A stretch of 21,957 bases of DNA, taken from a virus (Duplodnaviria; Heunggongvirae; Uroviricota; Caudoviricetes). This document shows positions 1 to 15,721 of the stretch, in pieces (the stretch's first letter is position 1; each line of letters starts with the position of its first letter). The stretch lies in the IMG/VR virus record IMGVR_UViG_2606217100_000005, one strand, 5' to 3'. The notes beneath the pieces are model-generated. The model made no database searches. It was not told the DNA's origin and saw only the letters and a program-made list of their open reading frames with translations. A program made the position numbers and the translations under genes.

Positions 1-300
1 ATGACAAAAACAGTATCAACCAGTAAAAAACCCCGTAAACAGCATTCGCCTGAATTTCGCAGTGAAGCCCTGAAGCTTGCTGAACGCATCGGTGTTACTG
101 CCGCAGCCCGTGAACTCAGCCTGTATGAATCACAGCTCTACAACTGGCGCAGTAAACAGCAAAATCAGCAGACGTCTTCTGAACGTGAACTGGAGATGTC
201 TACCGAGATTGCACGTCTCAAACGCCAGCTGGCAGAACGGGATGAAGAGCTGGCTATCCTCCAAAAGGCCGCGACATACTTCGCGAAGCGCCTGAAATGA
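1..300 (+). CDS. insE: IS3 OrfA (InsE-type HTH transposase subunit), 99 aa
   Basis: Translation [32 protein letters not shown]...AKRLK matches IS3 InsE as recalled; its stop overlaps the start of OrfB. Confidence 0.9.
262..268 (+). promoter_or_regulatory. Putative programmed -1 ribosomal frameshift motif (CAA AAG G) joining OrfA to OrfB
   Basis: A AAG motif sits in the OrfA frame about 30 nt before the OrfA stop. The OrfB frame (positions divisible by 3) is open from at least 264 through the ATG at 297. IS3-family elements are known to make an OrfAB fusion by -1 slippage at A-AAG. Confidence 0.45.
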
Positions 301-1163
301 AGTATGTCTTTATTGAAAAACATCAGGCTGAGTTCAGCATCAAAGCAATGTGCCGCGTGCTCCGGGTGGCCCGCAGCGGCTGGTATACGTGGTGTCAGCG
401 GCGGACAAGGATAAGCACGCGTCAGCAGTTCCGCCAACACTGCGACAGCGTTGTCCTCGCGGCTTTTACCCGGTCAAAACAGCGTTACGGTGCCCCACGC
501 CTGACGGATGAACTGCGTGCTCAGGGTTACCCCTTTAACGTAAAAACCGTGGCGGCAAGCCTGCGCCGTCAGGGACTGAGGGCAAAGGCCTCCCGGAAGT
601 TCAGCCCGGTCAGCTACCGCGCACACGGCCTGCCTGTGTCAGAAAATCTGTTGGAGCAGGATTTTTACGCCAGTGGCCCGAACCAGAAGTGGGCAGGAGA
701 CATCACGTACTTACGTACAGATGAAGGCTGGCTGTATCTGGCAGTGGTCATTGACCTGTGGTCACGTGCCGTTATTGGCTGGTCAATGTCGCCACGCATG
801 ACGGCGCAACTGGCCTGCGATGCCCTGCAGATGGCGCTGTGGCGGCGTAAGAGGCCCCGGAACGTTATCGTTCACACGGACCGTGGAGGCCAGTACTGTT
901 CAGCAGATTATCAGGCGCAACTGAAGCGGCATAATCTGCGTGGAAGTATGAGCGCAAAAGGTTGCTGCTACGATAATGCCTGCGTGGAAAGCTTCTTTCA
1001 TTCGCTGAAAGTGGAATGTATCCATGGAGAACACTTTATCAGCCGGGAAATAATGCGGGCAACGGTGTTTAATTATATCGAATGTGATTACAATCGGTGG
1101 CGGCGGCACAGTTGGTGTGGCGGCCTCAGTCCGGAACAATTTGAAAACAAGAACCTCGCTTAG
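297..1163 (+). CDS. insF: IS3 OrfB (InsF-type DDE/rve transposase catalytic subunit), 288 aa
   Basis: Integrase-core-like segment ([31 protein letters not shown]...HTDRGGQY...) and recalled identity to IS3 InsF; frame is -1 relative to OrfA. Confidence 0.9.
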
Positions 1164-1193
1164 GCCTGTGTCCATATTACGTGGGTAGGATCA

Positions 1194-1307
1194 CAGCACG
1201 ACATGCTTGTACTCGGCTGCATCAATGTTCTTACGTAGCTTGTCAGCTGCTTTCCACAGGATGACCTCTAACGGGTCTGTTTTGATTTCTTTAGGTTTTC
1301 TTGCCAT
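1194..1307 (-). pseudogene. 5' fragment (38 codons) of a type I restriction-modification methyltransferase (HsdM-like) gene, cut off by IS3
   Basis: Minus-strand ATG at 1307 gives MARKPKEIKTDPLEVILWKAADKLRKNIDAAEYKHVVL, then runs into the IS3 terminus. The LWKAADxLR...YKHVVLGL pattern is the typical N-terminus of HsdM-type N6-adenine methyltransferases (recalled family pattern, not searched). Confidence 0.5.
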
Positions 1308-2043
1308 TGGCGTAACTTCGTGAATTAGGATGGTAGCCCTATTTTGCCTTAAAGTTCCGCTTGTTACGAGCTTATACAGCGATTAATTATTATCTGATTT
1401 TAGTGTTTTCGTTCAGCTCAGCAAGTGCAATGACTCATGGGGTAAGTGCTTTGTAACAGGGTTGTTGATGTCAGTCGTTGGCCCTCAATGGAGTCACGGT
1501 CATAGGCATAATTGCTGTATAGCTGTTAATGTTTGTCTGGGTGAATTTCTACTATTCGGACTAACACCAAGTGAGTTCCATACTACATAACTGTGAGAAT
1601 TTTCTGTACCCTTCACTCTATCCTCTTCTTGCATATTTACAGGAAGATAAAGCAAAAGATACAAAACTTTGTAATCAAAAAACTGTCTTAATGTACTTAC
1701 ATCACGTTTAGTTATTAAATTTTTTGTCATGGTGAAAATTTTTACTTGGTCATTAAAATTCATCGGGTGTTAATATTCTAAACGAATAGGATGTCAAGCT
1801 AAAATGATGTGTCAAGTTGTTTGTAAAGTGAGAGGTTTATTTTTGGAAGAAATGCTTAAGAGAAGTATATATGATATTTGCCTGAATATAATTATTGATA
1901 TGCAAGGTTGGCAGAGGTTTTCTTTCTTTTCTAACCGAAGGGAAGAAAAGCAAGGGGAACTCGAAGAAGCAAGCGCAGCGGCTTCGCAGAGTTAGCCCTT
2001 GCTTCTCTTATAATTGGCATTATTCATTCAAGAACAATAGGAT

Positions 2044-2063
2044 CTTCGCTTGTACAAGCGAAG
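2044..2063. repeat. 20-bp perfect palindrome CTTCGCTTGTACAAGCGAAG in AT-rich non-coding tract
   Basis: Read directly: CTTCGCTTGT is the reverse complement of ACAAGCGAAG. Related GCGAAG/CTTCGC motifs occur nearby (about 1964-2007). No adjacent T-run, so not an obvious terminator. Confidence 0.8.
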
Positions 2064-2718
2064 CTATAATAAAAACAATCAATTAATTATTTTTAAAGTA
2101 TTAAACAAGAACCTATTGACATTCATAAAATACAAGTTATTTATAATGTATGCCATAAATAAAAAGTTTTATGTCATATGTATCCTGCACTATGTGCAGT
2201 TAATGTACCACTTGTCCCATAGATGGGAATATTGGAAAGGTTACTTTGTTTTGAAGTAGCCTTTCGTCCTTCAATATTAACGATTACTTATTGCTATTAC
2301 CAAGTCCAGTCGAATCGAAGAACATCTTTTATCTGAAACGACTCCTAATACCCGGTTAAAGCCACAATATCTCTCGCATACGTAGACCAAAGAAAAATTA
2401 TGATATTAAATATGTGATTTTTTTTAGTGTTAAGTTGAATAATTAAATACTGGAGAGTTTTCTGTGCACTACCAATTGCTGGTTCATCTGTTCTGCCGCT
2501 GATGTTTCTGACGAATCTCCCGGTGACACAGAACTGTCCCTCTCTACCAGCCTTTATTCGACTCAATGTCCGGCTGCTGATACGCAGTTATCCCTTCGTA
2601 TCAATGACTTACACTTAAACGTAATGCTTTGGTTGCTGGCGTATCTGACAGCTTCTTCGGCGTGAAGGTCGTTGTGTAAGTATACTTCTTGGTTTATTTA
2701 GGCTATATAAAACCATGA

Positions 2719-3615
2719 CTATGACTTGCTGTTTTCAGTAAGAGTCTTATCATCCAAAGAATTTATTCTAGAAATTCTTTTTAACTCATTAAGATAATCA
2801 ACCTCGTTTTCTAAGAACCAATGAAGAACTTTAGAATTGCCAAGTAATTTATTAATATATGACTGGATTATAACGAATTTCAACATATCTGAACCATACT
2901 CGGTTTGAAGCTTTTTCGTTTCTTCCGAAGTTGTTGCCATTTCTTGTTCCAGACGAAGTATGGTTTTTTTTATGTCCTTTTTATAGGGAGTGTTTTTCCC
3001 TTTATTTACTATCATCGATGCCGGTGTTGCATCCAAGATGCTCATTGCAAATTTTTTACTATAATTATCAAAATTAATCATTGTACCGACTGCTTCAATT
3101 TGGCGAATTGGCTTCATTTTCCTCAAAACGTCAAATGTAGCCTTAGGTATAGGTTTATCAGAAAGTTTCGCAATTACACTTGAATCTATGCCGTTCATCA
3201 CATTCGCTTTATCTTTTATGGCATCAACAGATATGCCCAAAGCAGCACTAAGTTTTTCAATTGATACTTTTGCCAGAGACTTAATTATCATTCTATGTTC
3301 TTCAACTACATTTATATGATTCACTTGTTTGTTAGGAGTGAAAGCATCATCTATGCTCGAAAGTATACATGGAGCTTTTTCTATACCTAAGTCTTTTAAA
3401 GCCTCAACCCTTAAATGGCCATCAAGTATCTTAGTGACATCTTTATCTTTGTCATAGAATACTATTATTGGTTCAATAATACCTAAGCTTTCGATAGAGG
3501 TAACTATTTGATGATATTTATGGCTTCGCTTTACGTTTTCTAATAATTCCTTAGATGGAATTAACTTATTAGTTTCCAGGTAAATAAAATTATCGCCAAA
3601 ACGTATCTGAATCAT
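2719..3615 (-). CDS. ParB-like N-terminal domain protein (paralog B), 298 aa
   Basis: ORF with ATGA stop/start overlap to the upstream gene. Motif ...IIEPIIVFYD...KILDGHLRVEALKDLG... resembles the ParB/Spo0J N-domain arginine-finger box (GERRxRA / DGQHR-like). AT-rich codon usage. Confidence 0.7.
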   Translation of the reverse strand: MIQIRFGDNFIYLETNKLIPSKELLENVKRSHKYHQIVTSIESLGIIEPIIVFYDKDKDVTKILDGHLRVEALKDLGIEKAPCILSSIDDAFTPNKQVNHINVVEEHRMIIKSLAKVSIEKLSAALGISVDAIKDKANVMNGIDSSVIAKLSDKPIPKATFDVLRKMKPIRQIEAVGTMINFDNYSKKFAMSILDATPASMIVNKGKNTPYKKDIKKTILRLEQEMATTSEETKKLQTEYGSDMLKFVIIQSYINKLLGNSKVLHWFLENEVDYLNELKRISRINSLDDKTLTENSKS

Positions 3616-4508
3616 TTTAATACCTCTTTGTTTACTGGGGTTAATATCTGAGATGGTAGTTCTGAAAGATTCTCTTGTTCAAGTATATGTTGAAAGCTTT
3701 TATTCATCATTATGATGTTAAAAATCTCATTTACTATTAGTAGGTTGGTTTTTATGAATTTTGAGTTGTTATAAACAGATTTATGTTCAGCGATACTATT
3801 TTCATAAAGCTCAATCAACTCCTCTGCAGTCATCCTTTTTGATGGTTTGTGATAATAAAATCCGGCTGCTTTTGCACCTTTATTCCCAACTGTTCTTTGA
3901 TTTAGAATGTGTTTTATCTTTATAATGTCCCGACTTTTTATTAATTTTTTATCATATGCTTCGGTAAGAATATCTTGTGCTTCCTCAGTTTCACATCTTG
4001 CAAATTGCACTGCGAGATACAGAGGCAAATTACCCCGTTCGACTGCTGAGAGAAGTTTATGCTCTCCCTTATCAAGTAGCATATTAATACTGCTCACCCA
4101 GTTCGATGAATATCCAGTAATCTCACTTATTTCGGAGTCTGAAAGTCCTCTGATTTTCATGTCTTTAATCACCTGTAATAACTCATTAGAACGTGGTCTT
4201 CTCCTTGCAATGTTTTCAACTAAACTCATAACGTAAGCATCTTCTTCTGATACATCTCTTATAATTGCTGGAATAATAGTTTCACCTAATGCAACGAGAG
4301 CCTCTATTCTCCCTTGACCACAAATTAAAGCATATTTGAAATCGCCTTCATCAATAGCTCTTACGCTTATAGGCTTGCTTAATCCTCTTTTTTTTATGCT
4401 TTCCTTTATTTCTTCATGCACTACCTTATTTCTTGTTCGTGGGTTAAGAAATTTTATTTTTGCAATCTCAATTTGAATTATTGGGAATTCATTTTTTTCA
4501 GGCAGCAT
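3612..4508 (-). CDS. ParB/Spo0J-like protein with central HTH (paralog A), 298 aa
   Basis: N-terminus IIQIEIAKIKFLNPRTRNK...SKPISVRAIDEGDFKYALICGQGRIEALVALGETIIPAIIRDVSEED follows the ParB N-domain pattern; followed by an HTH-like segment GLSDSEISEITGYSSNWV. Overlaps the recombinase gene by 11 nt. Confidence 0.7.
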   Translation of the reverse strand: MLPEKNEFPIIQIEIAKIKFLNPRTRNKVVHEEIKESIKKRGLSKPISVRAIDEGDFKYALICGQGRIEALVALGETIIPAIIRDVSEEDAYVMSLVENIARRRPRSNELLQVIKDMKIRGLSDSEISEITGYSSNWVSSINMLLDKGEHKLLSAVERGNLPLYLAVQFARCETEEAQDILTEAYDKKLIKSRDIIKIKHILNQRTVGNKGAKAAGFYYHKPSKRMTAEELIELYENSIAEHKSVYNNSKFIKTNLLIVNEIFNIIMMNKSFQHILEQENLSELPSQILTPVNKEVLK

Positions 4509-6054
4509 ATAGTTCCCTCACTTTCATGCGAGTAATAATTTGTAGAAGTTTATCAAGATTATCAAATCTATAGAGATCTAATCGAATGTTGTTTGTTTCC
4601 GTCATGCACATTTTATTATATTCGTTTTCAATCTTTGGTATGATATAAAAATCAAGAGGTGAAATATTTTGTGAATTCATTCGTATAACAATTGTTATGT
4701 CTGCTTTCTGTGAGTTATCAAACCGGACTTTCCATCTAAGTTTACCTGATTTCATATGTATGCATTTAGTAACAAGGACGGAAATTAAAAACTCATCATT
4801 GATGTAAAGCATTGGGGCATATTTATACTCGTCTATATGACAGTTACTTTTTAAAATTTCACCCTTAAAATCCTCAATTATCTCTGAGTAAAATGATCTT
4901 AGTGCTTCATTTATTTTGAGATAGCTGTAATCATGTTCTGGCTTATAACCAATCAAAGTATATGCTCTTAAAAGACCACCAAATCGGGTTCTATAAACAG
5001 AAGATGAAGGGCCTGTATCATCTTCATCAATGATAAAGCCTGATAGTTTTCCATTAGATTCTAATTTTTGTTTTAGTTTTTCTAATAGATCTTCATTAGT
5101 CAAATGAATGGATCGGAGCTGAATTATTTCTTGAGCTTTATTGTATTTTTTCTTTGAAATAATAGGTTTATATGCCTTGTCACATCTAACCCATTCATGT
5201 TTGGGGTTTTTTACAAGCCTACTTTTTAATTTAGATGAGGTTTTGTTATATATGTTGTTTCCAATATATTTTTCATTTGTCAAAATTTGATGTATTTTTG
5301 CACGAGTCCATAATGTTCCATTTTCTGCAGGTATGTTCTGTTCATTTAATCTCTCAGCAATAATGAATTCTGGGACGTTATTATCTATAAAGAGATCATA
5401 TATTCTATTTACAATTTTTATTTCATTTTTTGGTCCCGGAATTAATATTACCCTATCTGTTTGAATACTCTTTCTTTTGCGGAAACTCAATATTTCTTTA
5501 GCTATGCCATTTTCGTCTACTAAAAGACGTCTCAGCCCATAACCAGCCATACCGCCTTGATGATAACCAAGCTTTATTAAATTTACTTGCCCTATAAATA
5601 CCTTTTCAGATAGATTCCTGCTGTGATATGCAGCACTAGATCTTTTTATATTCAGTATAACAGAGGACTCTAAAGGGAAATCTTTAGTGGGTATAGGTTC
5701 GGAACAATATATAAGATCTACACCATTTCTCTCAAATAGAAAGGAATAATATGCCGCTTCATCACTATTTTGAAAACGACCAAAACGGCTCACATCATAA
5801 AATAATACAGCCTGTATATCTATTTTCTTTTGTTCTACATCGCTAAGTAACTGCTGCAAAGAATGCCTGCCTACGATACTGACTCCGCTCTTACCTGCAT
5901 CATCGTAGGTATAAGCGATTTCCATATTGTTCTTTTCAGCATAATCTTTGATATATTCGGACTGATTATGTAAAGAATATTGCTGATGGTCGGTAGACAT
6001 CCTCAAGTACTGCGCGACCCTAACTCTATGATTTTTTTCATTTTCGCTAGCCAT
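4498..6054 (-). CDS. Large serine recombinase (resolvase/integrase family), 518 aa
   Basis: N-terminal VAQYLRMSTDHQ motif (catalytic serine context of resolvase-family enzymes) followed by a long C-terminal extension typical of large serine recombinases; ATG start with GAGG upstream. Confidence 0.85.
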   Translation of the reverse strand: MASENEKNHRVRVAQYLRMSTDHQQYSLHNQSEYIKDYAEKNNMEIAYTYDDAGKSGVSIVGRHSLQQLLSDVEQKKIDIQAVLFYDVSRFGRFQNSDEAAYYSFLFERNGVDLIYCSEPIPTKDFPLESSVILNIKRSSAAYHSRNLSEKVFIGQVNLIKLGYHQGGMAGYGLRRLLVDENGIAKEILSFRKRKSIQTDRVILIPGPKNEIKIVNRIYDLFIDNNVPEFIIAERLNEQNIPAENGTLWTRAKIHQILTNEKYIGNNIYNKTSSKLKSRLVKNPKHEWVRCDKAYKPIISKKKYNKAQEIIQLRSIHLTNEDLLEKLKQKLESNGKLSGFIIDEDDTGPSSSVYRTRFGGLLRAYTLIGYKPEHDYSYLKINEALRSFYSEIIEDFKGEILKSNCHIDEYKYAPMLYINDEFLISVLVTKCIHMKSGKLRWKVRFDNSQKADITIVIRMNSQNISPLDFYIIPKIENEYNKMCMTETNNIRLDLYRFDNLDKLLQIITRMKVRELYAA

Positions 6055-6336
6055 GCACGAAACCTCATGGATGATTCAATACAATGTAGTGGATAAAATT
6101 GATCAAATTTTAACCGAATTCAACTGTTTTATCATTGATTAGAGCGAATTTGGTAGATCTTCGAGGTGTATGATAATCGAGAAGAGATGTGAATTATTTA
6201 GCTGATATGACCGACAGCTTTCGTTATGTGGACTCAATGTCCCCATTTGTAAATGGCTATGCTTAGTCCACATAGGTTAATGGTGTGATTATTAATTCTT
6301 TAACTAAATCAAGATAGTTAATCCATCATGGGAGAG

Positions 6337-7566
6337 TTATGCGGCAATAACTTTGCATTTTTGAGACGAAACATAGTCACTCCACCATTGCATGAGAACC
6401 ACCCGTTCAGTGAGATACTCTGCACGATTGTAGGCTGCAATTATTTCATCTTTCTTCGAGTGGGCAAGGGCGGCTTCTAAGACATCAGTCCTAAACTTGC
6501 CAGACTCCTCAGCAGCCGTTCTAGCAATGGATCGCATACCGTGAGCTACAAGCTCACCTCCGAAACCCATACGGATTATGGCCGCATTAGCTGTTTGTTC
6601 ATGCATGTGATTGAGTGGAGCTTTGATACTGGGGAACACCCACTCTCTATGCCCGCTGATGACTTTCATTAAATCCAAAACTCGCAAAGCTTCTTTGCTC
6701 AGTGGAACTTTGTGAGGCTTCTTCATTTTCATAAACTCCGCCGGGATGTTCCACATGCCAGTTTCAATATCAATATCTGACCATCTTGTGCGAACAGCTT
6801 CACCTGGGCGAACCCATGTGAGAAGTTGCCACTCAATCAGTAGCCTTGTTTCCAAACGGATAGAAGCATTGTTTAGAGCAACCAAGAAGCGAGGGAGTTC
6901 GGAAGGGGGTAATGCTGGCATATTCTGTTTTTTTGGCTTGCTGAACCGTTGCCCCAGGTTGTCTGCCGGGTTGAATTCTATGAGTTCTTCTGTTGCTGCA
7001 TAGCGGAAAATTTCATTCAGGCGGGATATGATGCGGCGAAGTGTTTCAAGGACACCTCGTTTTTCTATGGGTTCTAAATGCTGTTTAAGCATTTTAGGGC
7101 GAATCTCCTTAATTGGGGTATCACCCAATGTGGAAAAGATATTTCTCTCTAGGCTTCGCCAGATGTCGTTAGCATGATCTTGGGAGATGCCTGACGTTTT
7201 GACTTTCTCATCAAGCCACTTCTTGGCTACTGCTTGAAATGTATGTTCCGTGGCATCTTTCAGTGCATTGGCTTTTTGGTTGTTATGAACTTGGGGGTCT
7301 ATACCATTTGTAAGCAACGACAAGTATTCATCACGTAAAGCTCGTGCCTTCGCAAGTGTAAGGTGAGGATAGGTTCCTAAGCTCACCTTAGTTCGCTTTT
7401 TGGTCACAGGCACTGCATATCTGAAATACCAATTTTTCTTCCCTCCCTTCGCCAGGGGAGCGATTCGCAACAGCAAACCATCGCCGTCAAAAAGGTTAAC
7501 CTCTTTTTCGGCAGGTTTGGTGCTTTTGATTTCAGTGTCAGTGAGCTTCTTAGCGATTTTGGCCAT
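6337..7566 (-). CDS. Tyrosine integrase, P4/CP4-57 (IntA-like) family, 409 aa; ORF extends to 7647 but the ATG at 7566 is preferred
   Basis: N-terminus MAKIAKKLTDTEIKSTKP...LFDGDGLLLRIAP is the P4-type arm-binding domain; C-terminal HGMRSIARTAA...AYNRAEYL holds the catalytic tyrosine region. Lies next to the ssrA 3'-end repeat in the same orientation as int follows ssrA in E. coli K-12. Confidence 0.85.
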   Translation of the reverse strand: MAKIAKKLTDTEIKSTKPAEKEVNLFDGDGLLLRIAPLAKGGKKNWYFRYAVPVTKKRTKVSLGTYPHLTLAKARALRDEYLSLLTNGIDPQVHNNQKANALKDATEHTFQAVAKKWLDEKVKTSGISQDHANDIWRSLERNIFSTLGDTPIKEIRPKMLKQHLEPIEKRGVLETLRRIISRLNEIFRYAATEELIEFNPADNLGQRFSKPKKQNMPALPPSELPRFLVALNNASIRLETRLLIEWQLLTWVRPGEAVRTRWSDIDIETGMWNIPAEFMKMKKPHKVPLSKEALRVLDLMKVISGHREWVFPSIKAPLNHMHEQTANAAIIRMGFGGELVAHGMRSIARTAAEESGKFRTDVLEAALAHSKKDEIIAAYNRAEYLTERVVLMQWWSDYVSSQKCKVIAA

Positions 7567-7663
7567 GTTTGGGACCCTCGATTTTAGGACCCATCTTCGT
7601 GGGTCCCATTCAGGGTGCCATAACTCGTAGTTCTCAGCAATTCTCACTAGACTACAATAGACG

Positions 7664-7697
7664 TAAAAAAGCCCGCAGAGCTTGTGCTGTGCGGGCT
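7664..7697 (-). terminator. Intrinsic terminator (minus strand) between att repeat and integrase
   Basis: On the minus strand, stem AGCCCGCA...UGCGGGCU followed by UUUUUU (plus strand AAAAAAGCCCGCAGAGCTTGTGCTGTGCGGGCT). Confidence 0.6.
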
Positions 7698-7731
7698 TAG
7701 TAGACTTTACTGAACTTCAGTACATCAATAT

Positions 7732-7763
7732 TTGGTGGAGCTGGCGGGAGTTGAACCCGTGTC
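7732..7763 (-). repeat. 32-bp direct repeat of the ssrA 3' end (att core), 31/32 identical to 21556-21587
   Basis: TGGTGGAGCTGGCGGGAGTTGAACCCGtGTCC here versus TGGTGGAGCTGGCGGGAGTTGAACCCGcGTCC at the true ssrA 3' end; sequence diverges after this point. Confidence 0.9.
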
Positions 7764-7973
7764 CATAGTTATGTAATTCATTGAATTTAAATAGCCAAAT
7801 ATTGTTGATTTTACAAGCGGCTCTTTTGCGGAACTTTTTCTGTCCTGTTACTGTCTTACTATTTATTTTAAAATAGTTTCATTTGGAATTAATGGTTTGT
7901 GGTTGCAGTTTCGGAGATAGATAGCATTTTTTGCTAAAAAATATTTTTATAAAAAATGTGTGTAAAAATGATG

Positions 7974-7996
7974 TTATGCACAGATTTATGCACAGA
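7974..7996 (+). promoter_or_regulatory. Two tandem DnaA-box-like 9-mers TTATGCACA (consensus TTATNCACA), with a third inverted near-match at 8020-8028
   Basis: TTATGCACAGA t TTATGCACAGA read directly; reverse strand of 8020-8028 reads TTATCCAAA. About 200 bp upstream of the 8191 ORF. Function not established. Confidence 0.3.
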
Positions 7997-8190
7997 GGCT
8001 TTGTGATAAACCAGATTGTTTTGGATAAGTTTGTTTTTTTGTGATTTGTCAACAATATTATTGACTCTTGTTACTAAAGTGAGTGTTTTCTAAGGTGGTC
8101 AGAAGTTGTCCCTTCATGTAATCTTATTAGCCATAAAGAACAAAAAATAATTCAACATCATTACCAACTATTTGTAAGATAAGGTTTTTA

Positions 8191-9006
8191 ATGTTGCAAC
8201 CAGCAAAAAAAGCATCAGTTATTAGCGCGCGGCTAACTAAATACCTCAAAGATGGAGTGAGGATTGATGACTTTAGCTTTAGAAGGATGTTACGTGAGAT
8301 TGAAGCACTTAGAGATCCTGTCTCTGAGGACTATCTTTTAGCGTTGGTCTATGGTGCACATGGCCAAGTGAATGAGGCGATAGGCTTCTTTGAGCGTTCC
8401 TTGCAGGTATGCCATAATGAGGTTGTTGCAAAGAATTTTCTTGTTTTCTTGTCAGATTACGGTACGTTGAAGAAAAGCTTTGAAACAAGCATTAAGCTTG
8501 CTGAAAGCTTCATATCCCCGTTTATTTATCTTCAAGCTTATGAAAACTCCCTCTTTATGGGGAAGATGGCGTTGGCGGAGAAGTATTTCCAGTCATACTC
8601 TAAATTGTTCGGAGATAAGGAGCCTGAAAAAATGGACAACAATCTTGATGAAGTTGTTTCCCAGGTCGAATCCTTTAAGCAACGTGCCGATCTTTCTGGT
8701 TTAGAATATGAACTTATTTTCAATAATGTAGCCAATGTCATGGATTCTCAGAAGGTTCATCTTTCGGGAATGCGTTTTTATAATATTTCGGAAGAGAAAG
8801 TGAATGCGATTGTATTCATGACAAAGTCTTCTGATGCTGAACAAATCGCTGATATGAATATTGAGCTTGCTTTTTCAATGGCTGAGCACGATTGTTTAGT
8901 CGGTAAAGATTTTGCTGTTTGGTTTGAATGTAAAGACACACATATTGAGCAGAATGCTATCTCCGAATTAGGTCTGATTACCCGGAGGGTTGCACATGCC
9001 GGTTAA
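8191..9006 (+). CDS. Hypothetical protein, 271 aa (no family recognised)
   Basis: Long ORF with ATG start and AAGG upstream; predicted helical, AT-rich; its last 11 nt overlap the next ORF. Confidence 0.6.
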   Translation: MLQPAKKASVISARLTKYLKDGVRIDDFSFRRMLREIEALRDPVSEDYLLALVYGAHGQVNEAIGFFERSLQVCHNEVVAKNFLVFLSDYGTLKKSFETSIKLAESFISPFIYLQAYENSLFMGKMALAEKYFQSYSKLFGDKEPEKMDNNLDEVVSQVESFKQRADLSGLEYELIFNNVANVMDSQKVHLSGMRFYNISEEKVNAIVFMTKSSDAEQIADMNIELAFSMAEHDCLVGKDFAVWFECKDTHIEQNAISELGLITRRVAHAG

Positions 9007-9379
9007 TAGTCAAGATTTTCTCGGTTTTGCAAAAGACTGTCATCAACGTAATGACGAAATCGGCTATCGAAATGCTATAGCAAGATCCTACTATGGCGCT
9101 TACCATCATGTCTTGCCTTGTATGGTAAACGGGCCGAAAGACAGTCATCAGGGGCTAATCAATTATTTGCAGGGCGATGCTTCAAGAGGAAGTGAAGTAT
9201 ATGAAGCTAGATATCTAAAAGGGATTAGTTTTATCCTGAGTCAACTTAAAGCTCAGAGGATTGTTGCAGACTATCGACTTGATCAATCGGTCACTTCTAA
9301 ACAGTCTGAAGTTGCGATTCTAACAACTGAGAGGCTCTTTGCTAAGTGTACGGAAATGCTTAAATCGAGAGCCTCCTAA
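8996..9379 (+). CDS. Hypothetical protein, 127 aa from ATG 8996 (ORF opens at TTG 8990); contains an Rx6H motif (RSYYGAYH)
   Basis: GGAGGG lies 6 nt upstream of ATG 8996. The Rx4-6H pattern is the HEPN signature, but that assignment is speculative. Ends at an intrinsic terminator. Confidence 0.55.
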   Translation: MPVNSQDFLGFAKDCHQRNDEIGYRNAIARSYYGAYHHVLPCMVNGPKDSHQGLINYLQGDASRGSEVYEARYLKGISFILSQLKAQRIVADYRLDQSVTSKQSEVAILTTERLFAKCTEMLKSRAS

Positions 9380-9385
9380 TTGATA

Positions 9386-9411
9386 AAGCCACTTAAGTGG
9401 CTTTTTTTGTG
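9386..9411. terminator. Bidirectional intrinsic terminator (AAGCCACTTAAGTGGCTT + T-run)
   Basis: 18-bp palindrome followed by TTTTTGTG on the plus strand; the stop codon of the minus-strand int gene lies inside the stem. Confidence 0.7.
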
Positions 9412-10565
9412 ATATTGCTGGTCGTATTACCGTCATATTCCTTTAAATATGAACCATAATGACGAAATAACATTTCCGGCCCTTTATGCCCCATTTGAGC
9501 TGCAAGCCAAAACAGGTTTGCTCCCCGGCTGATATGGCGGGTGGCGAATGTATGCCTAGTTTGATATGGATTTCTGTAACGAATACCTGCTTTTCGCAAT
9601 GTTGGCACCCATGCTTTTTTCCTGATTGCATCAGCACTTGCCCAAGGCTTATTGGTCTTTGGATCTTCAAAGACAGTAGTATCCTTCATGAATGTAAATG
9701 GCTTCTGATTTATCAGCGCCAACATTGCCTCTTCTGTCAGTTCAACTTTCCGAGTACCTGCTTTTGTCTTTGTCCCTTTGATAACACCGACAACACTTGC
9801 GCTCTGGACATGGGCAGTTTTTCCAACAAAGTCGATATCACGCCATCGAAGGGCACATAATTCAGAACTACGCAGGCCTGTATGTATAGCGAACCGGAAC
9901 AGATTTTCCCATTGTTTGTTTCCGGCTGCTGCTAGTAATGCATCAACTTCTGCTGGTGATAGCGGATCAACTACGTAGCTGCTTTCTGCTTCTGACTTAT
10001 CACTTTGGTAGCGCGAAGCTGTTACTAACGATACGGGGTTAATTTGAAGTACCCCATCGGTCACGGCTTCATCAAGTGCTGACCGCAGGAAAGATAACTG
10101 GTTGCGAATTGTTTTTAAGGTCGTTTTCTGATTTTGAATCCACGCTTTCAGGGTTGCTGGTGTTAATTCACTTGCAGGGCAAATGTGAAGTGAGGCTAAC
10201 GCACTACGGCATTTTTTATAGCCACCAATCGTAGAGGGTGAAAGTTTTCTTGTTTCGCAGATTTCAAGATATTCGTCCAGGTACATCTTTACCGTTTTGC
10301 CTGCAGCAGCATTACCAAAAATTTTCAAACGAGCAGAACGGGGAAAATATTCTGCATAAATGAATGTTCCCCTTTCGATCTTATTATGGATTTCGCCGAG
10401 TGTACGCTCGGCGTATTTAATGTTCTTTGGTGTTACTTCCAGATTGGAAAGCGGCTCACGACATCTAACTCCTTTGTAGGTGAAAGTTATATTGATCGTT
10501 TCTCCCTGGCGGTGTTTCCTGATTGTTACGCCGCGCGGTAGTTTGAGCAGTTTTGTCTGGCCCAT
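9393..10565 (-). CDS. Tyrosine integrase, lambdoid type, 390 aa
   Basis: N-terminus MGQTKLLKLPRGVTIRKHRQGETINITFTYKGVRCRE (arm-binding domain of lambdoid integrases); C-terminal RHTFATRHISRGANLFWLAAQMGHKGPEMLFRHYGSY has the catalytic R/H/Y region. Confidence 0.85.
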   Translation of the reverse strand: MGQTKLLKLPRGVTIRKHRQGETINITFTYKGVRCREPLSNLEVTPKNIKYAERTLGEIHNKIERGTFIYAEYFPRSARLKIFGNAAAGKTVKMYLDEYLEICETRKLSPSTIGGYKKCRSALASLHICPASELTPATLKAWIQNQKTTLKTIRNQLSFLRSALDEAVTDGVLQINPVSLVTASRYQSDKSEAESSYVVDPLSPAEVDALLAAAGNKQWENLFRFAIHTGLRSSELCALRWRDIDFVGKTAHVQSASVVGVIKGTKTKAGTRKVELTEEAMLALINQKPFTFMKDTTVFEDPKTNKPWASADAIRKKAWVPTLRKAGIRYRNPYQTRHTFATRHISRGANLFWLAAQMGHKGPEMLFRHYGSYLKEYDGNTTSNITKKAT

Positions 10566-10771
10566 TTTGCAACCTCACTAAGATCAATCCACCTCTCCTT
10601 AACGCCTTCAACCTTTAAAACCTGAACACCTTCACGCCAAACACCGCGCTGTACACGTTTGTTTATTGCTTCAGGAGTTTCGCCAGTTTCTTTGCAATAA
10701 GTTGAGATAGGAACACAATCGAGGTTCAGCATACGTTTCTCCATTATCCCGTCTGCACACGGGAGCAACAT
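10526..10771 (-). CDS. Excisionase-like small DNA-binding protein; probable start at ATG 10732 (68 aa); overlaps int start by 40 nt
   Basis: Position and overlap with int are as in lambdoid xis-int pairs. GGAGAAA precedes the third in-frame ATG. Family assignment is by context and size, not a recognised motif. Confidence 0.5.
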   Translation of the reverse strand: MLLPCADGIMEKRMLNLDCVPISTYCKETGETPEAINKRVQRGVWREGVQVLKVEGVKERWIDLSEVAKWARQNCSNYRAA

Positions 10772-10773
10772 TA

Positions 10774-11640
10774 TTAACGAATAGTGTCGTTACTTTGAAG
10801 TACAGCAAATGCCATTAATACTTCTAAAGTATATCTTCTATAAAATTTAACAAAACCAACATAGAAAACATAGACGAAGAAAAAGCTAAGCATTATTGAA
10901 AGTAAACTATAAAGATAATCACTATGAGTACATAATCGATAAATAAAGGTTGGAACTGATACCCAAAATGAAATTATAAAGATTAAACATATGTTTCTGC
11001 AAAAACCATATAATGCAACATAGTTTTGAATTTTTGTTTGATGTTGTTTTGAAAACTCATAAACATAATGATATGCCAATCTGAAGAGATCATCATCAAG
11101 TCCGTTTTTATCTTGTAATAATTGGCGATTTGTTATGAACTTTTTCTCATAACCTTCTTTGATCATTAACCATGTTGTATTAGCTAAATGAAATGGTAGA
11201 GATTGAGAATAACATAGTTTTTGTGTTATAAAATCCCATAGTATTATTGGGCATAATACGCATTTGATTATGCGATTCTTTATTTTTGTTTTTTTATCAG
11301 CGCTTCTCTCATCGCATGATGGGCTACAAATGCTTTCTGAGGTATCTATCAATTTTTTAAATAGATATTTGGAAGGATATCCTAATTCTTTATTCATGTA
11401 TTTTTCGATAAAAAATGCTGACGTGATAGAAATAAAATGTCCAGCTATATAAGATATAATAACTATTGAAGCGTAGTTCAAAATGCCAAAGATTTGACTT
11501 TGACCTCTGAGCAATTCACTTAAGTCAATAACAATATCTAGATCGAATGTCAAACCACAGAAATACATTAATAGGATAAAAAAACCACCTGGTATTAAAT
11601 ATCCAAGAAAGTCATAGAATGAGAATGGATTTTGATTCAT
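10774..11640 (-). CDS. Polytopic membrane protein, 288 aa from ATG 11640 (ORF opens at TTG 11664)
   Basis: At least four hydrophobic helix-length segments (FLGYLIPGGFFILLMYFCGLTF, ILNYASIVIISYIAGHFISITSAFFI, ICLIFIISFWVSVPTFI, LLSIMLSFFFVYVFYVGFV). GGAGAG 5 nt upstream of the ATG. Strongly AT-rich compared with flanking prophage genes. Confidence 0.6.
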   Translation of the reverse strand: MNQNPFSFYDFLGYLIPGGFFILLMYFCGLTFDLDIVIDLSELLRGQSQIFGILNYASIVIISYIAGHFISITSAFFIEKYMNKELGYPSKYLFKKLIDTSESICSPSCDERSADKKTKIKNRIIKCVLCPIILWDFITQKLCYSQSLPFHLANTTWLMIKEGYEKKFITNRQLLQDKNGLDDDLFRLAYHYVYEFSKQHQTKIQNYVALYGFCRNICLIFIISFWVSVPTFIYRLCTHSDYLYSLLSIMLSFFFVYVFYVGFVKFYRRYTLEVLMAFAVLQSNDTIR

Positions 11641-11748
11641 TGTTGCTCTCCAATAATTTTTCAATTTGTAATATAACCTATATCTATATGTTAATAAATT
11701 ACTTATATGTTCTTTTATGGCAGAGTTTGAATTCGTACGTGCTGATTT

Positions 11749-12285
11749 TTACGACTCAGTTAACTCTTTAAAGCGTTCCATAAACATCCCATAGGTATGG
11801 CCTGGCGACAGTGGAATAACTTTGAACATCTCTGTTGCCGGGATACCTTCCAGTACGGGCCAGAAAGAGCCATCATCAAGCCCGAGATCGCGGCGTTCGG
11901 TTGCCAGCATGATGAGATCGGCATATTTCACGGGCGTACTCATAACCGGGGGTAACCCGTATTTCTCACGGATTACGGCGTCTATTTTTTCTTCCATCCG
12001 TTTATAGTCAGGAAGAAGGCGTTTCAGTGGAGCCGGGATGTCCTGGCAATACGCTTCTGTTGCATCATGCATTAACGCTTCAAAAGCAAATTCCTGCGGT
12101 ACCAGCTGGCTGCAAAGCACCGCATGTTGGGCGACGCTGTAGAAGTGTGAAAGATGGCCGGCAAAGCGACAGATATTTGAAAGGGAAACCGCGATATCGT
12201 TAATATCGATGTTGTCTTTATTTATCCTGTCATAATAAAAATGTTTCCCGGAAAAAGTTTTAATAAATGACATTTTGTTCTCCAC
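11749..12285 (-). CDS. yfdR: HD-domain phosphohydrolase, YfdR-like 5'-deoxynucleotidase; ATG at 12273, ORF opens at GTG 12285
   Basis: HD-domain residues (H...HAVL...MHDATEAY...D). Size and neighbourhood match the CPS-53 prophage yfdP-yfdQ-yfdR block as recalled. Confidence 0.65.
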   Translation of the reverse strand: MENKMSFIKTFSGKHFYYDRINKDNIDINDIAVSLSNICRFAGHLSHFYSVAQHAVLCSQLVPQEFAFEALMHDATEAYCQDIPAPLKRLLPDYKRMEEKIDAVIREKYGLPPVMSTPVKYADLIMLATERRDLGLDDGSFWPVLEGIPATEMFKVIPLSPGHTYGMFMERFKELTES

Positions 12286-12401
12286 GTTATATGCGCTGCA
12301 CCGCGCTGAATTTTGGTTAAAGAAAACCCTCGCCTTCAGGCGATTATTGAGTCAATTACGTTTCCATAAATGCCCCCGCAGGGGCATTTGCAGTAATGAA
12401 A

Positions 12402-13226
12402 TCAGGCGGTGAAAGTCCCAATAAAGGTTTCTACTTTGCTGTCCTTGAATTTCTCAACAAGCAGATCACGAAATTCGTTAGCCATATCTTCCTGCACCGC
12501 TTCCAGCTGAATAATGCGCAGAACCAGTACAGGACGATCGCCAGTGATAATGCTGAGGCGTAATTTAAACGGACGTTCTTTCAGACCTTCAAACGGAACG
12601 CATTTAAACTCAAATGCCACTGGCATAATGTCTTTGGTCTTCGCTTCGACAGACTCCATCAGGGAGCGTTTGCCGCTGAAGTCATTATCTTCAAAATCAG
12701 CAGTCTGGTTTGCTTCAATCGTGATTTTACGGACCGCCGCAGCCGCTTTTGTTGCCTGAATGGTGTCACCATTAGCATCAAAGCCCACAAGGTAGTCGGC
12801 CCAGTCTTCGATCCATTCTGCCAGTGACTTCTGGGAGTTACGCTCGCCGTTAACAGACAACAGAGCAGAGAACGGTGCTGTCTTTTTCAGTTTGAGAGTG
12901 GCAGTGTTATCTGCGTGACCTGGCTCATCAATAGTACCCAGGTTAAGCACACTGACGGCACGCATATTATCGGCATCGATAAAGCAGCGGGTGCCTTCAT
13001 CTGCAAGATCTTTAGAATAACGGGTAAAATCATCGATGCTGGCAGTGGAAAGTGCACCACGGAAACGGAAGCGATTTAAATTAAATTTTTCCAGATCATG
13101 AATGCGGAAATTCTCAGGCAATGCCACAGCATCGGCACCAATCTTACTGATAATTTCATTAACACCCTGAGCAGAAATAAGGGCATGGATTTGATTAATT
13201 GCGGTTGCGTCTAAGTTCTGAGACAT
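12402..13226 (-). CDS. yfdQ: Prophage early protein, YfdQ-like, 274 aa
   Basis: 274-aa ORF with GAGGA RBS, sitting between the YfdP-like and YfdR-like genes. Assignment is by size and synteny recall, not motif. Confidence 0.5.
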
Positions 13227-13291
13227 AATAAGTCCTCACTATATAAAGATATTCAGTGATGAGATAAATAATCAGTTTATTACGAACGATA

Positions 13292-13654
13292 TTAACGACC
13301 TGCTGCGCGGAGTTTTCCGTCAGGTTCACCGGCAAGAGTCAGTAATTGTCCCTGGTCTTCCTGCAGAATAGTCAGGCGACCACCGCGATTGACATACATC
13401 GGCGTTTCGGTGGTGTCTTCTTCGGAAATTTTCCCGCGGTTAGTTGGGCGAACATATGAGAGTTTGTGTTTGATTTTCACACGGTTCTCATCAAACGGTT
13501 CGATTTCCAGATTGAGTGAGACCTTCCCTTTGGTTTTCGTGTTCATCACACCGGAAGCGACCTCACTGAGAACTGCGCCGATTTTGGTTTCAAATACGCC
13601 GCCGTCCAGCTCCCCGATAAATGCCTGCACATCAGTACTGCGTTCGCTAGCCAT
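13292..13654 (-). CDS. yfdP: Prophage early protein, YfdP-like, 120 aa (start at ATG 13654, not the 175-aa extended ORF)
   Basis: GAGGAG 8 nt upstream of the ATG at 13654. The upstream in-frame extension is low-complexity and crosses an inverted repeat. Confidence 0.5.
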   Translation of the reverse strand: MASERSTDVQAFIGELDGGVFETKIGAVLSEVASGVMNTKTKGKVSLNLEIEPFDENRVKIKHKLSYVRPTNRGKISEEDTTETPMYVNRGGRLTILQEDQGQLLTLAGEPDGKLRAAGR

Positions 13655-13703
13655 TTTGCTGCTCCTCATCATATCGACCCTGCAAGGTCGGTTGGTTTCT
13701 CCA

Positions 13704-13790
13704 CAAAACAGAGAAGAACACCTGCGGTGGCAGCCGCCCGGATGGATTGGGTTATGAGCCCGTCGTCCGGTGATGCTCTTCTCTGTTTTG
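13704..13790. repeat. 14-bp inverted repeat CAAAACAGAGAAGA / TCTTCTCTGTTTTG enclosing a 59-nt GC-rich segment
   Basis: Read directly at 13704-13717 and 13777-13790. Lies in an apparently non-coding GC-rich tract with no protein-like ORF in any frame. Confidence 0.8.
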
Positions 13791-13800
13791 CAAAAAAGGA

Positions 13801-13837
13801 CGGTACCAGCCGGAAGCAAGGGTACAAACTGGTACCG
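13801..13837. repeat. 9-bp inverted repeat CGGTACCAG / CTGGTACCG with 19-nt spacer
   Basis: Read directly at 13801-13809 and 13829-13837. Contains GGTACA, the motif repeated in the immunity-region operators. Confidence 0.8.
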
Positions 13838-14092
13838 CCAGGACTACACACAGCATAAAGTTGTGGTGCCGGGTGCCTCCCGGTGCCTGGCGAAGGTTGC
13901 ACACTAGGCGGGTGGGTATCCACAGAAGGTCGACTGTCAGCCTCAACCTTAACCCGCGTACGCTGAGCCGCATTCACCACAACGCTAAGGATTCTCTCTG
14001 GTTGAAAATACTTAGCTGTTATGTGCCTGTCTTTTCACCACTTCAGGCTCGGTGGTATCCTTTTAAGCCCGTATACATAAAAGGAAAATCAA

Positions 14093-14338
14093 ATGACTTT
14101 TGATGAAAAAGGACTTGATAATGCAATTAATAAAATCATCGTAACGTCGCTCTTTTCCTGTCTCAGCGACACTCAGCAGAAACAGTTCTACGAATCGGCT
14201 TTCAACATGATCGAGCGTTGTTGTTTCTGCGATGCCGACGAGTTACCTGAAAAAATCAGGAAACAGTTGGCTGATGCTCTTCGAGTGCGACTTTCTGACC
14301 AATTTTCTGAAATGTGCTCTCCGAATTTGGACAAATAG
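14093..14338 (+). CDS. Hypothetical small protein, 81 aa
   Basis: ATG with AAGGA 8 nt upstream; charged, helical-looking sequence. It is antisense to the PL-like operon and overlaps the 14256-14531 ORF by 83 nt, so one of the two may be spurious. Confidence 0.4.
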   Translation: MTFDEKGLDNAINKIIVTSLFSCLSDTQQKQFYESAFNMIERCCFCDADELPEKIRKQLADALRVRLSDQFSEMCSPNLDK

Positions 14339-14531
14339 AAAAAGGCCATTTCCATTCAGGGTCTGATGGAAATACTTCAGCCTGTTCCAAAGCACGGCGT
14401 AAAGAGAACACAACTCCAGCCATAATCTGATGTTTCCCATTGGTCCAGCTATCGCCGCTCTGATCTACAGGGGCGGCTATGTCGTATGACCAAACGACTT
14501 TACAGTTATTGTTTAAAATCTGGACTTTCAT
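14256..14531 (-). CDS. Hypothetical protein, 91 aa; first ORF downstream of the PL-like promoter
   Basis: ATG 14531 preceded by AGGTG; position matches the N slot of lambdoid phages, but the sequence is not arginine-rich and was not recognised. Confidence 0.45.
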   Translation of the reverse strand: MKVQILNNNCKVVWSYDIAAPVDQSGDSWTNGKHQIMAGVVFSLRRALEQAEVFPSDPEWKWPFSICPNSESTFQKIGQKVALEEHQPTVS

Positions 14532-14657
14532 TTCATACACCTGCTTTAACATGAGTGCCTAGTGGCACAACATGACTCAACGAATCATCCTGGACTTCAT
14601 ATGCCCCAAGCGGCTACTTCGTGGGCGTCCTGCCTGTTCGTTGTTTCTCTTGGGTAC

Positions 14658-14685
14658 ATTATGTATCTCAAAGGTACATTGTCAA
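14658..14685 (-). promoter_or_regulatory. Sigma70-type promoter (PL-like): -35 TTGACA, 16-nt spacer, -10 CATAAT, flanked by GGTACATT operator-like repeats at 14653 and 14673
   Basis: Minus-strand reading of 14680-14685 is TTGACA and of 14658-14663 is CATAAT. Sits immediately downstream of the cI terminator, as lambda PL/OL does. Confidence 0.55.
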
Positions 14686-14687
14686 GT

Positions 14688-14712
14688 ATAAAAAAACCTG
14701 CCGAAGCAGGTT
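14688..14712 (-). terminator. Intrinsic terminator after the cI-like gene (stem AACCUGC, UUCG loop, U7 tail)
   Basis: Plus strand AAAAAAACCTGCCGAAGCAGGTT; on the minus strand this is a 7-bp stem with UUCG tetraloop and a run of seven U, starting about 10 nt after the cI stop. Confidence 0.75.
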
Positions 14713-14724
14713 CATAAACATTGA

Positions 14725-15399: not shown

Positions 15400-15489
15400 A
15401 ACGAAATTAAAACCCTTGTACCGTTAAGGTACAAGTATCTTGAAGGTTCATTTCAATCATGTAATATGTACACCGGAGGTACATGTTGT
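15400..15489. promoter_or_regulatory. Divergent OR-like control region with a 21-bp palindrome CTTGTACC-GTTAA-GGTACAAG (15415-15435), candidate PR (-35 TTGAAG 15440-15445, -10 TAATAT 15462-15467) and candidate leaderless PRM
   Basis: Palindrome and GGTACA half-sites read directly (also GGTACATG at 15477). cro RBS GGAGG at 15475-15479. Promoter assignments are by consensus matching only. Confidence 0.5.
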
Positions 15490-15690: not shown

Positions 15691-15721
15691 CAGAACACCT
15701 TCAATTTTTAACCACAGAACG

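Follow-up and report, generated by a model that had tools for sequence, protein, structure and literature searches.

Probable stacking of a lambdoid prophage remnant and a P4-type integrative island at the 3' end of the Escherichia coli ssrA gene

The locus described here raises the question of how many integrative elements have entered the 3' end of the tmRNA gene ssrA, and how they came to lie one behind the other. The DNA under study, referred to as the window throughout, is the whole stretch of 21,957 nucleotides of IMG/VR virus record IMGVR_UViG_2606217100_000005; it carries an intact ssrA gene and, at a distance from it, a second copy of the end of this gene beside an integrase gene. Integration at the 3' ends of tRNA and tmRNA genes, by which the gene is regenerated and a fragment of it is displaced, is the basis of the Islander method; 125 tandem arrays were recorded among 3919 islands, and the tmRNA gene was the most enriched target (PMC4383910). 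The origin of tandem prophages from elements sharing an attB has been called the traditional view (PMC8112680), and the elements found at ssrA in E. coli, including that of CFT073, have been tabulated after Williams 2003 (PMC10107115). In the initial annotation of the window it was proposed that one element had integrated at ssrA and that a second one later used the regenerated site, leaving the older attachment junction stranded inside. This proposal is supported by strains that carry either element alone, by the pre-insertion site and by the attP of free phages. We assign a probability of about 0.88 to the reading that a P4-type island and, later, a prophage of the LLS/CFT073-smpB type became stacked at the 3' end of ssrA, with the order of arrival presumed from the distribution of both elements among strains. 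The features on which this reading is based are collected in Table 1.

Table 1. Features of the window, ordered by position.
Feature	Position	Strand	Basis or remark
IS3 copy, cut by the window edge, truncating the island	1-1193	+	Pfam rve, HTH_21
P4-type integrative island remnant	1194-7731	.	99.85% identical to the ssrA-abutting REL606 island, 99.985% to WL164
Two ParB/RepB-like genes	2719-4508	-	Pfam
Large serine recombinase	4498-6054	-	Pfam
P4-type tyrosine integrase, 409 aa	6337-7566	-	Arm-DNA-bind_3, Phage_int_M, Phage_integrase
Terminator-like hairpin, probably of the P4-type island	7669-7698	-	region -27 kcal/mol, z -4.9; T-run follows
Orphan displaced ssrA 3' fragment, 33 nt	7732-7764	-	junction of the prophage remnant and the presumably older P4-type island; repeat finder, pattern search
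Lambdoid (LLS/CFT073-smpB type) prophage remnant, 13,790 bp	7765-21554	.	precisely absent from REL606 and LR-27
Two overlapping ORFs in the gap between att core and int	8191-9006 and 8990-9379	+	phrog_17809 and phrog_5176, both function unknown
Prophage tyrosine integrase, full length	9393-10565	-	Arm-DNA-bind_2 and Phage_integrase domains (Pfam)
Excisionase	10526-10771	-	phrog_2917, E 8.3e-45; xis annotation in phiNP
Membrane ORF	10774-11664	-	
Surviving prophage early region	11749-16285	.	Pfam and annotations of matching WL164 and G749 genes
yfdP-, yfdQ- (DUF2303) and yfdR-like early genes	11749-13819	-	
S24 repressor	14725-15399	-	Pfam
CII/YmfL-type regulator	15722-16285	+	Pfam
646-bp segment without G749 counterpart	16296-16941	.	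Ash-family ORF (Pfam); isrK and C4 antisense RNA (Rfam)
Prophage late end and cargo	16916-21327	.	
Tail fibre assembly gene (tfa)	16916-17395	+	Pfam
GIY-YIG defence gene PD-T4-3	17465-18238	-	full-length PADLOC model match, E 2.5e-140
Cytosine-5 methyltransferase	18603-20078	+	PADLOC MTase_II, E 4.2e-230
EcoRII-type endonuclease	20113-21327	-	PADLOC REase_II, E 1.9e-234
Phage-borne arm like the native ssrA downstream region	21400-21554	-	~90% identical to native flanks; carries a terminator-like hairpin
Terminator-like hairpin in the phage arm	21405-21428	-	-22.3 kcal/mol, z -6.1; T-run follows
att core copy, ssrA-proximal prophage end	21555-21587	-	overlaps ssrA 3' end: 3' strand of the acceptor stem and T-arm

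The window contains a single tmRNA gene, ssrA, which was located by ARAGORN at 21556-21918 on the minus strand and encodes the tag peptide ANDENYALAA. It corresponds to Rfam family RF00023 with a score of 295.8 bits over the whole model. Both programs thus agree with the initial annotation on a complete ssrA whose 3' end, given the minus-strand orientation, is position 21556. The sequence 21555-21957 is 100% identical to K-12 ssrA. A repeat finder returned one long direct repeat for the window, 7732-7764 versus 21555-21587, in which 32 of 33 nucleotides are identical and the sole mismatch is a T at 7760 against a C at 21583. With the last 32 nt of ssrA as query and up to three mismatches allowed, exactly two sites were found in the window and no match in 100 dinucleotide-preserving shuffles, so that none is expected by chance. 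In the internal copy these last 32 nt correspond to 7733-7764. The earlier count of 31 identities in 32 positions was therefore correct, but the copy had been placed one base out of register, at 7732-7763. Direct reading of the flanks showed that the likeness ends at the edges of the block on both sides. As the similarity is limited to 33 bp, the internal copy does not belong to a larger duplicated block, a possibility that had been named as one objection to its nature as an attachment site.

The internal copy is followed by the gene of a P4-type integrase. If an ATG start is used as in the RefSeq homologues (the longest open reading frame starts with GTG at 7647), the gene begins 165 bp from the copy, in line with the neighbourhood noted at the outset. 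The three Pfam domains of the protein were detected with E values of 6e-23 (Arm-DNA-bind_3), 4e-24 (Phage_int_M) and 1e-19 (Phage_integrase), NCBIfam model PRK09692 scored 444 bits against a cut-off of 434, and the identity to K-12 IntA is 48% over 401 aa. By these three domains and the significant similarity to IntA, the integrase belongs to the P4-type, CP4-57 IntA-like group. Positions 6337-7700, which span the gene, are 100% identical at the nucleotide level to BL21-RIPL. At the other end of the island, the IS3 element of the window is 100% identical to an IS3 in WL164, where 10 kb of additional island including a type I restriction-modification system lie between IS3 and the equivalent of position 1194.

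The closest known counterpart of this part of the window is CP4-57 of K-12, in which a P4-type integrase gene likewise lies directly downstream of ssrA (ssrA-intA) and the spacer hairpin is supplied by the element. At its far end, where the native flank and ypjA follow, CP4-57 has retained a displaced fragment of the ssrA 3' end with a similarity of ~15 nt; the island of the window has lost this end together with the att copy and also no longer adjoins ssrA. The cargo differs as well, with alpA, yfjI and other genes in CP4-57 and a serine recombinase and two ParB-like genes here. The displaced copy of CP4-57 carries a 1-nt deletion, which is reported to inactivate ssrA upon excision (PMC10107115); in contrast, the internal copy of the window has an intact 3' terminus. 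The analogy to CP4-57, together with the position of the island next to ssrA in 956 genomes (see below), suggests that the island was once a separate element integrated at ssrA.

Between the two copies lies a lambdoid prophage remnant. Its own integrase gene is found at the end distal to ssrA, as the initial annotation had stated, and the direct neighbour of the intact ssrA is the EcoRII-type restriction endonuclease and not an integrase, which is also consistent with that description. The interval 7765-21554 shows the signature of a tmRNA-gene island: an intact, regenerated ssrA at one end, a displaced 3' fragment on the same strand at the other end, a tyrosine integrase of its own with an excisionase alongside, and a precise absence that leaves a single core in REL606, LR-27 and altogether 956 genomes. 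The lambdoid genes that have been kept are int-xis, the early-left genes, the repressor/CII region, tfa and cargo; the complete set is found in the prophage of strain G749, which is 98-99.6% identical. According to a blastn map against G749, the 646-bp segment at 16296-16941 replaces ~33 kb of replication, lysis, head and tail genes. The integrases of the prophage and of the P4-type island belong to unrelated subfamilies and share 25% identity over 133 aa.

Occupancy of the site was analyzed in 5426 complete E. coli genomes. For this, the predicted junction before arrival of the prophage was built by joining positions 6900-7764 to 21588-21957. This island-only junction is present without interruption in 956 of the 5426 genomes, with up to 99.9% identity, among them BL21, REL606 and C43. 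In REL606, blastn aligned 2375-7764 with 99.85% and 21555-21957 with 99.75% identity, and because both alignments share a single 33-bp core, REL606 corresponds exactly to the window minus 7765-21554. LR-27 has the same island-only arrangement with a single core. The prophage without the P4-type island was found between ssrA and glaH in at least two genomes, G749 and CFT073. The prophage of G749 has a length of 46 kb and starts at ssrA with the EcoRII restriction-modification genes and PD-T4-3, followed by tail, head, lysis, Q, replication and immunity genes; then come the integrase and the two cargo ORFs of the window and the ssrA fragment, which is directly followed by glaH. Identity to the window is 98.0% over 7724-16295 and 99.6% over 16942-21952. 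The element in the window is therefore a prophage of the G749 type in which ~33 kb have been replaced by 646 bp; deletion has left 13.8 kb of a 46-kb lambdoid prophage that is whole in G749 and CFT073. In CFT073 the same int end adjoins glaH, and int-xis is 98% identical to the window at the nucleotide level.

Empty sites occur in two forms, either ssrA, ~160 bp and ypjA (1385 of 5426 genomes) or ssrA, ~680 bp and glaH, as in FEA3. The exact tandem junction of the window (7300-8200) was detected in 21 of the 5426 genomes, and in WL164, 13C1079T and 042 the same island is preceded by relatives of the prophage with other cargo beside int. Thus, the comparison with other E. coli at ssrA proposed in the initial annotation yielded empty, island-only and prophage-only strains, and its concern that no strain might carry either element alone does not apply. 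Of all 5426 genomes, 1189 contain a member of the P4-type integrase family and 396 the LLS-type int-xis. No E. coli genome in the collection spans the whole window; the best, WL164, covers 87%, and an exact-match scan of genome contigs for the junction between IS3 and the island gave no hit. As such, the two-element arrangement is common to many genomes in the databases, among them that of 042, the enteroaggregative reference strain.

Free phages related to the prophage provide information on its attachment site. Phage LLS was isolated on E. coli K-12 and is lambdoid; its authors deduced integration at ssrA from a 29-bp identity and pointed out that CP4-57, with an unrelated integrase, targets the same gene (PMC12315714). 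The integrase of the prophage is 87% identical to that of LLS at the amino-acid level, without gaps. In the LLS record (PQ299149), the tail-fibre/invertase end and cargo are followed by a stretch ~91-92% identical to 21404-21601, which is annotated as a tmRNA pseudogene and attP, and then by one cargo ORF, int, xis, an exonuclease gene and yfdR-like and yfdQ-like genes. Circularisation of 7765-21554 gives just this layout. Since free phages share it, the location of int at the end distal to ssrA is the norm of the family and not an anomaly. With an LLS-type int beside a reconstructed attP that holds the ssrA 3' fragment, the remnant probably belongs to the LLS-type phages targeting ssrA. The int-xis region of Citrobacter phage phiNP is 83.8% identical to that of the prophage at the nucleotide level, and the first bases of the phiNP record form an ssrA-like core next to int and a gene for an AAA ATPase. 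LLS and the prophages of CFT073 and G749 thus share with the window the integrase family, an attP composed of an ssrA fragment and a flank-like arm, the distal int and the early-left genes. In contrast to them, the remnant is without replication, lysis and virion genes and lies in front of another element instead of an empty site. The EcoRII-type restriction-modification genes and PD-T4-3 are common to the window and G749 and absent from LLS.

The variants of the core allow the point of exchange to be narrowed down. The phage-side copies are identical to ssrA over the first 25-27 nt, TGGTGGAGCTGGCGGGAGTTGAACC(CG), and then diverge according to the phage variant. The bases after the shared part are gTgtccATAG in the window and G749, gAgtccAAAT in WL164 and 13C1079T, gAgtccGTAT in 042, gcgCccgTaattc in LLS and ccAgcgtccgaaaCTT in phiNP. 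The T at 7760 is common to the window and G749 despite their different left flanks, and WL164 has an A at this base although its island is 99.985% identical to that of the window. Since the core variants follow the phage side and not the island side, the T at 7760 appears to be phage-borne, and the exchange would have occurred within the first 25-28 nt of the repeat, 7732-7759, with the overlap region probably inside this stretch. In the tmRNA, these positions correspond to the CCA-bearing 3' strand of the acceptor stem, to the T-stem in its 3' half and to the T-loop of 7 nt; GCGGG/CCCGC inverted repeats flank the T-loop, which is the usual shape of a tyrosine-recombinase core. With an exchange at this place, the last 25-28 nt of the intact ssrA would now be of prophage origin.

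Adjacent to the core, the ~156 nt on its left side were compared pairwise and fell into three types. The phage type includes the arm of the window, the ssrA-proximal arm of G749 and a relic in GPEC206-621 (all 100% identical), as well as WL164 (99%) and LLS (90%). The native ypjA type is formed by two empty sites and the distal end of K-12 CP4-57, which are 94-96% identical among themselves, and the native glaH type by FEA3 and the distal end of G749 (98%). Phage-type and native arms are ~90% identical to each other. In G749 the proximal arm is of the phage type and the distal arm of the native glaH type, which is the swap of flanks expected from an exchange at the core.

Two other assignments of these flanks were considered and rejected. 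The ~155 bp beside ssrA had been taken for a native flank (many genomes are ~97% identical to 21401-21957), but the comparison limited to the arm assigned them to the phage type. Likewise, the distal flank of G749 is not a relic of another phage but the native glaH-type flank, with 98% identity to the empty site of FEA3.

The initial annotation had also pointed to terminator hairpins of one stem family behind both copies of the ssrA end. Both hairpins are real: they are located on the ssrA strand, have GCCCGC/GCGGGC stems and, as expected for intrinsic terminators, consist of a GC-rich hairpin with a U-run downstream of the ssrA end. Their origins, however, appear to differ. The arm hairpin is conserved with one covarying pair, GCCCAC/GTGGGC in the native ypjA type and GCCCGC/GCGGGC in the others, and the hairpin at 7669-7698 resembles one in the ssrA-intA spacer of K-12. 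Judged from these comparisons, the hairpin at 21405-21428 seems to be the phage version of the native ssrA terminator and that at 7669-7698 to be the one of the P4-type island. The latter probably serves ssrA where the island abuts the gene and would be stranded in the window, provided that both hairpins terminate transcription as predicted.

If two elements had entered the site, a third att copy would be expected beyond the island, and a search for it outside the window had been suggested earlier. Using cores of 32, 17 and 15 nt and allowing mismatches or one indel, none was found at 1-7731. The same cores likewise gave no third copy in the five island-bearing relatives WL164, 13C1079T, 042, LR-27 and REL606, in which the island was followed out to the core genes, so that this expectation was not borne out. 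In all five strains, ypjA is truncated by IS elements or deleted outright. The third copy is probably missing because IS elements erased the far end of the island, which would have taken the native flank and the fragment with it. Like the tandem arrays collected by Islander, the window thus shows an intact target, direct displaced 3' fragments and one integrase per element; it differs from them in that the integrases are of unrelated subfamilies and that the presumably older member now has no displaced fragment of its own. The P4-type island does possess its own integrase, but a displaced fragment at its far end is absent from 1-7731 and from the five relatives. By the strict Islander definition the window is therefore no tandem array, because the older member is without its own fragment.

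Taken together, the following history is proposed. The older occupant of the site would have been the P4-type island, with its integrase gene right after ssrA as in K-12 CP4-57 and a terminator hairpin of its own. Later, a temperate lambdoid phage would have entered, its tyrosine recombinase exchanging strands between attP and the 3' end of ssrA. This attP probably carried the last ~25-30 nt of ssrA and ~156 bp of native-like flank, terminator included. Because of this copy of the ssrA end, the gene would have been regenerated intact and would then be followed by the phage terminator. By the same event the former ssrA 3' end and the island behind it would have been pushed 13.8 kb away. Subsequently, the prophage would have lost the ~33 kb of replication, lysis and virion genes while keeping int, xis, both att sites, the immunity region and the defence cargo at both ends, and the island would have lost its far end to IS elements.

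The order of these two arrivals is not readable from the structure alone. That the island came first and the prophage second is nevertheless the better-supported order, suggested by a comparison of sequences among strains. In REL606 and LR-27, ssrA is adjoined only by a nearly identical island remnant, cut by IS1 or IS3 and encoding the same integrase (WP_001062342.1), and this island remnant lies beside at least three prophage cargo variants, those of the window, of WL164/13C1079T and of 042. The prophage family, in turn, is seen at full length and at other types of site. One resident island and several phage arrivals are simpler than the repeated insertion of an identical, immobile remnant, which favours the island as the first occupant. 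We consider it unlikely that the phage came first, at an unoccupied ssrA, and that the island later used the displaced 33-nt fragment as a secondary attB. The final topology would be identical, so that the structure alone is equally compatible with this course of events, and the displaced fragment does retain an intact 28-nt 3' terminus. Moreover, the displaced copy of CP4-57 has a similarity of ~15 nt with one base deleted, so that a P4-type integrase might need no more than a short target. However, the island in the tandem strains is the same IS-truncated remnant that is found alone at ssrA in hundreds of genomes with 99.8-100% identity; lacking a distal att, it could not have integrated as it stands, and it adjoins at least three different prophage cargo variants. 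Nor is there the native flank that would be expected past the island, but this may have been lost through IS-mediated deletions.

Less probable still is an import by homologous recombination, in which a segment across the ssrA region would have been taken over from another strain without any integration in the lineage of the window. The mosaic nature of the prophage, with 98.0% identity to G749 on its left, 99.6% on its right and a foreign 646-bp segment, would fit such a transfer, as would the phage arm with its ~90% identity to native flanks over 156 bp and an icd-integrated prophage carrying the same cargo and arm module, which shows that modules are exchanged between prophages. This explanation, however, concerns the way in which one strain acquired the array and not the first formation of the array, and the junctions retain the exact geometry of att sites. 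Finally, the view that the internal copy is no attachment scar but a chance match, an unrelated duplication or a product of homologous recombination or misassembly is effectively refuted: nothing was found in its favour (the lone mismatch could in principle suggest an older duplication), whereas the shuffles gave no match, the similarity covers only 33 bp, the same junction is present in 21 independent complete genomes and related ones in WL164, 13C1079T and 042, and the boundaries agree to the base with the pre-insertion site of REL606 and the attP of a free phage.

A stacking of a P4-type island and a later prophage at ssrA belongs to an established category, and the case presented here is an ordinary, well-documented event that does not alter the present picture of how elements integrate at tRNA and tmRNA genes. 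Williams' 'Traffic at the tmRNA gene' of 2003 is reportedly a work on just such tandem island arrays at tRNA and tmRNA genes. Our results are mainly of value for annotation. They provide base-exact boundaries for two elements at a classic integration hotspot, indicate that the "island" downstream of ssrA consists here of two unrelated elements, presumably of different age, and point to the DNA that would now supply the 3' end and the terminator of an important RNA gene. In addition, the locus can serve as a worked example in which all four states of occupancy (empty, island only, prophage only and both) are found among sequenced E. coli. Since the remnant has int, xis, both att sites and defence genes, it may still be an excisable carrier of the latter.

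It is conceivable, though in our view somewhat doubtful, that the stacking was not passive and that accretion is enabled by a ~190-bp attP cassette consisting of the ssrA end and the flank-like arm with its covarying terminator. If so, ssrA 3'-end formation and termination would depend wholly on prophage DNA, and the phage could integrate whatever lies downstream, which would make accretion possible. The integrase of the island would be cut off from its context next to ssrA, and the island would be fixed in place. A comparable principle operates at icd, where phage 21 and e14 bring a substitute 3' part of the target gene so that its function is kept after integration. There the target is a protein-coding gene, whereas the substitute in the window comprises the 3' end of an RNA gene and ~156 bp of flank with a terminator.

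A third stacked element, suggested by an EcoRII end followed by the arm and 26 nt of ssrA in GPEC206-621, was rejected, as it is actually part of a lambdoid prophage at icd. Besides a relic of an ssrA-type attP (arm and fragment), this icd-integrated prophage has the defence genes seen in the window, an indication that phages exchange att and cargo modules.

The two ORFs at 8191-9379 had zero Pfam or NCBIfam matches, and in PADLOC they showed no more than a weak similarity to HEPN (E 0.0014). The pair is also present in G749 and CFT073, and other relatives carry different cargo at this place. The gap between att and int could be a swap site, and its occupant in the window could be an undescribed defence or addiction module. 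This variable cargo slot between core and int is of mild interest, as are the imitation of the native ssrA flank by the phage and the relic in the icd prophage.

The phage attP arm next to ssrA is, by sequence comparison, about 90% identical to the native 156-bp flank 3' of ssrA, and this copy of the native flank takes in the terminator. In the hairpin of the arm, one stem pair covaries between the flank types. The same arm, together with 26 nt of ssrA and the PD-T4-3/EcoRII cargo, forms a relic held by an icd-integrated lambdoid prophage in GPEC206-621.

At the other end of the prophage, the internal ssrA fragment was compared with the ssrA fragment displaced to the distal end of CP4-57 in K-12 MG1655 (L009, the K-12 comparison locus). 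The K-12 fragment has a one-base deletion and resembles ssrA over only about 15 nt, whereas in the window fragment the 3' terminus is intact over 28 nt. If the exchange point is where it is inferred to be, the prophage of the window should leave a wild-type ssrA behind on excision, unlike CP4-57 in K-12.

Coordinates of the features discussed (window unless a comparison locus is named)
Feature	Position	Strand	Remarks
Large serine recombinase, then two ParB/RepB-like genes	2719-6054	-	P4-type island
Internal ssrA fragment	7732-7764		
Two overlapping ORFs (271 and 129 aa)	8191-9379	+	between att core and int
Predicted membrane ORF (296 aa)	10774-11664	-	between xis and yfdR-like gene
Replacement segment (646 bp)	16296-16941		
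Ash-family ORF			inside 646-bp segment
isrK match	16642-16718		Rfam; inside 646-bp segment
C4 antisense RNA match	16743-16830		Rfam; inside 646-bp segment
IS009 match	17154-17352		Rfam; within tail-fibre assembly gene
Prophage defence cargo	17465-21327		ssrA-proximal end
ssrA-EcoRII junction	20800-21957		
attP arm	21400-21554; L008 20600-20782; L003 4001-4152		L008 and L003, comparison loci
Displaced ssrA fragment of CP4-57	L009 1248-1262		K-12 MG1655, far end

The defence cargo comprises a GIY-YIG protein with a full-length match to PD-T4-3 (E 2.5e-140), alongside a complete restriction-modification pair of the EcoRII type. The ssrA-EcoRII junction is shared by 129 complete E. coli genomes. 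The slot between the att core and int differs in content between relatives. In the window, neither of its two ORFs matches a Pfam or NCBIfam family; both match only PHROG families of unknown function, and the second also shows a weak HEPN match (E 0.0014). In WL164 and 13C1079T the slot contains three ORFs, one of them encoding a STAS-like protein; in 042 it is occupied by genes for a Dam methylase and an AAA ATPase. An AAA ATPase gene fills it in phiNP, and LLS has a single ORF there. The slot looks like a site where accessory or defence genes are swapped.

The 646-bp segment stands in place of about 33 kb; the G749 prophage, which matches in other respects, lacks it. The segment is probably a recombination scar derived from another prophage. 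The predicted membrane ORF, whose gene is also present in WL164, G749 and CFT073, matches phrog_12528, a family of unknown function, over its full length and, weakly, Csx27 in PADLOC (E 1.4e-5).

In the P4-type island, the serine recombinase and the two ParB/RepB-like genes have overlapping stops and starts. This trio is retained immediately after the P4-type integrase in REL606, LR-27, 042, WL164 and 13C1079T, although all that lies beyond it has been deleted to varying extents. In the window, IS3 (1-1193) adjoins the island at 1194; in WL164, 10 kb including a type I restriction-modification system lie between an identical IS3 and the equivalent point, so the lineage of the window has undergone a deletion next to IS3. 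The island is cut by IS1 in LR-27 and REL606, and further IS copies border it in 13C1079T and 042.
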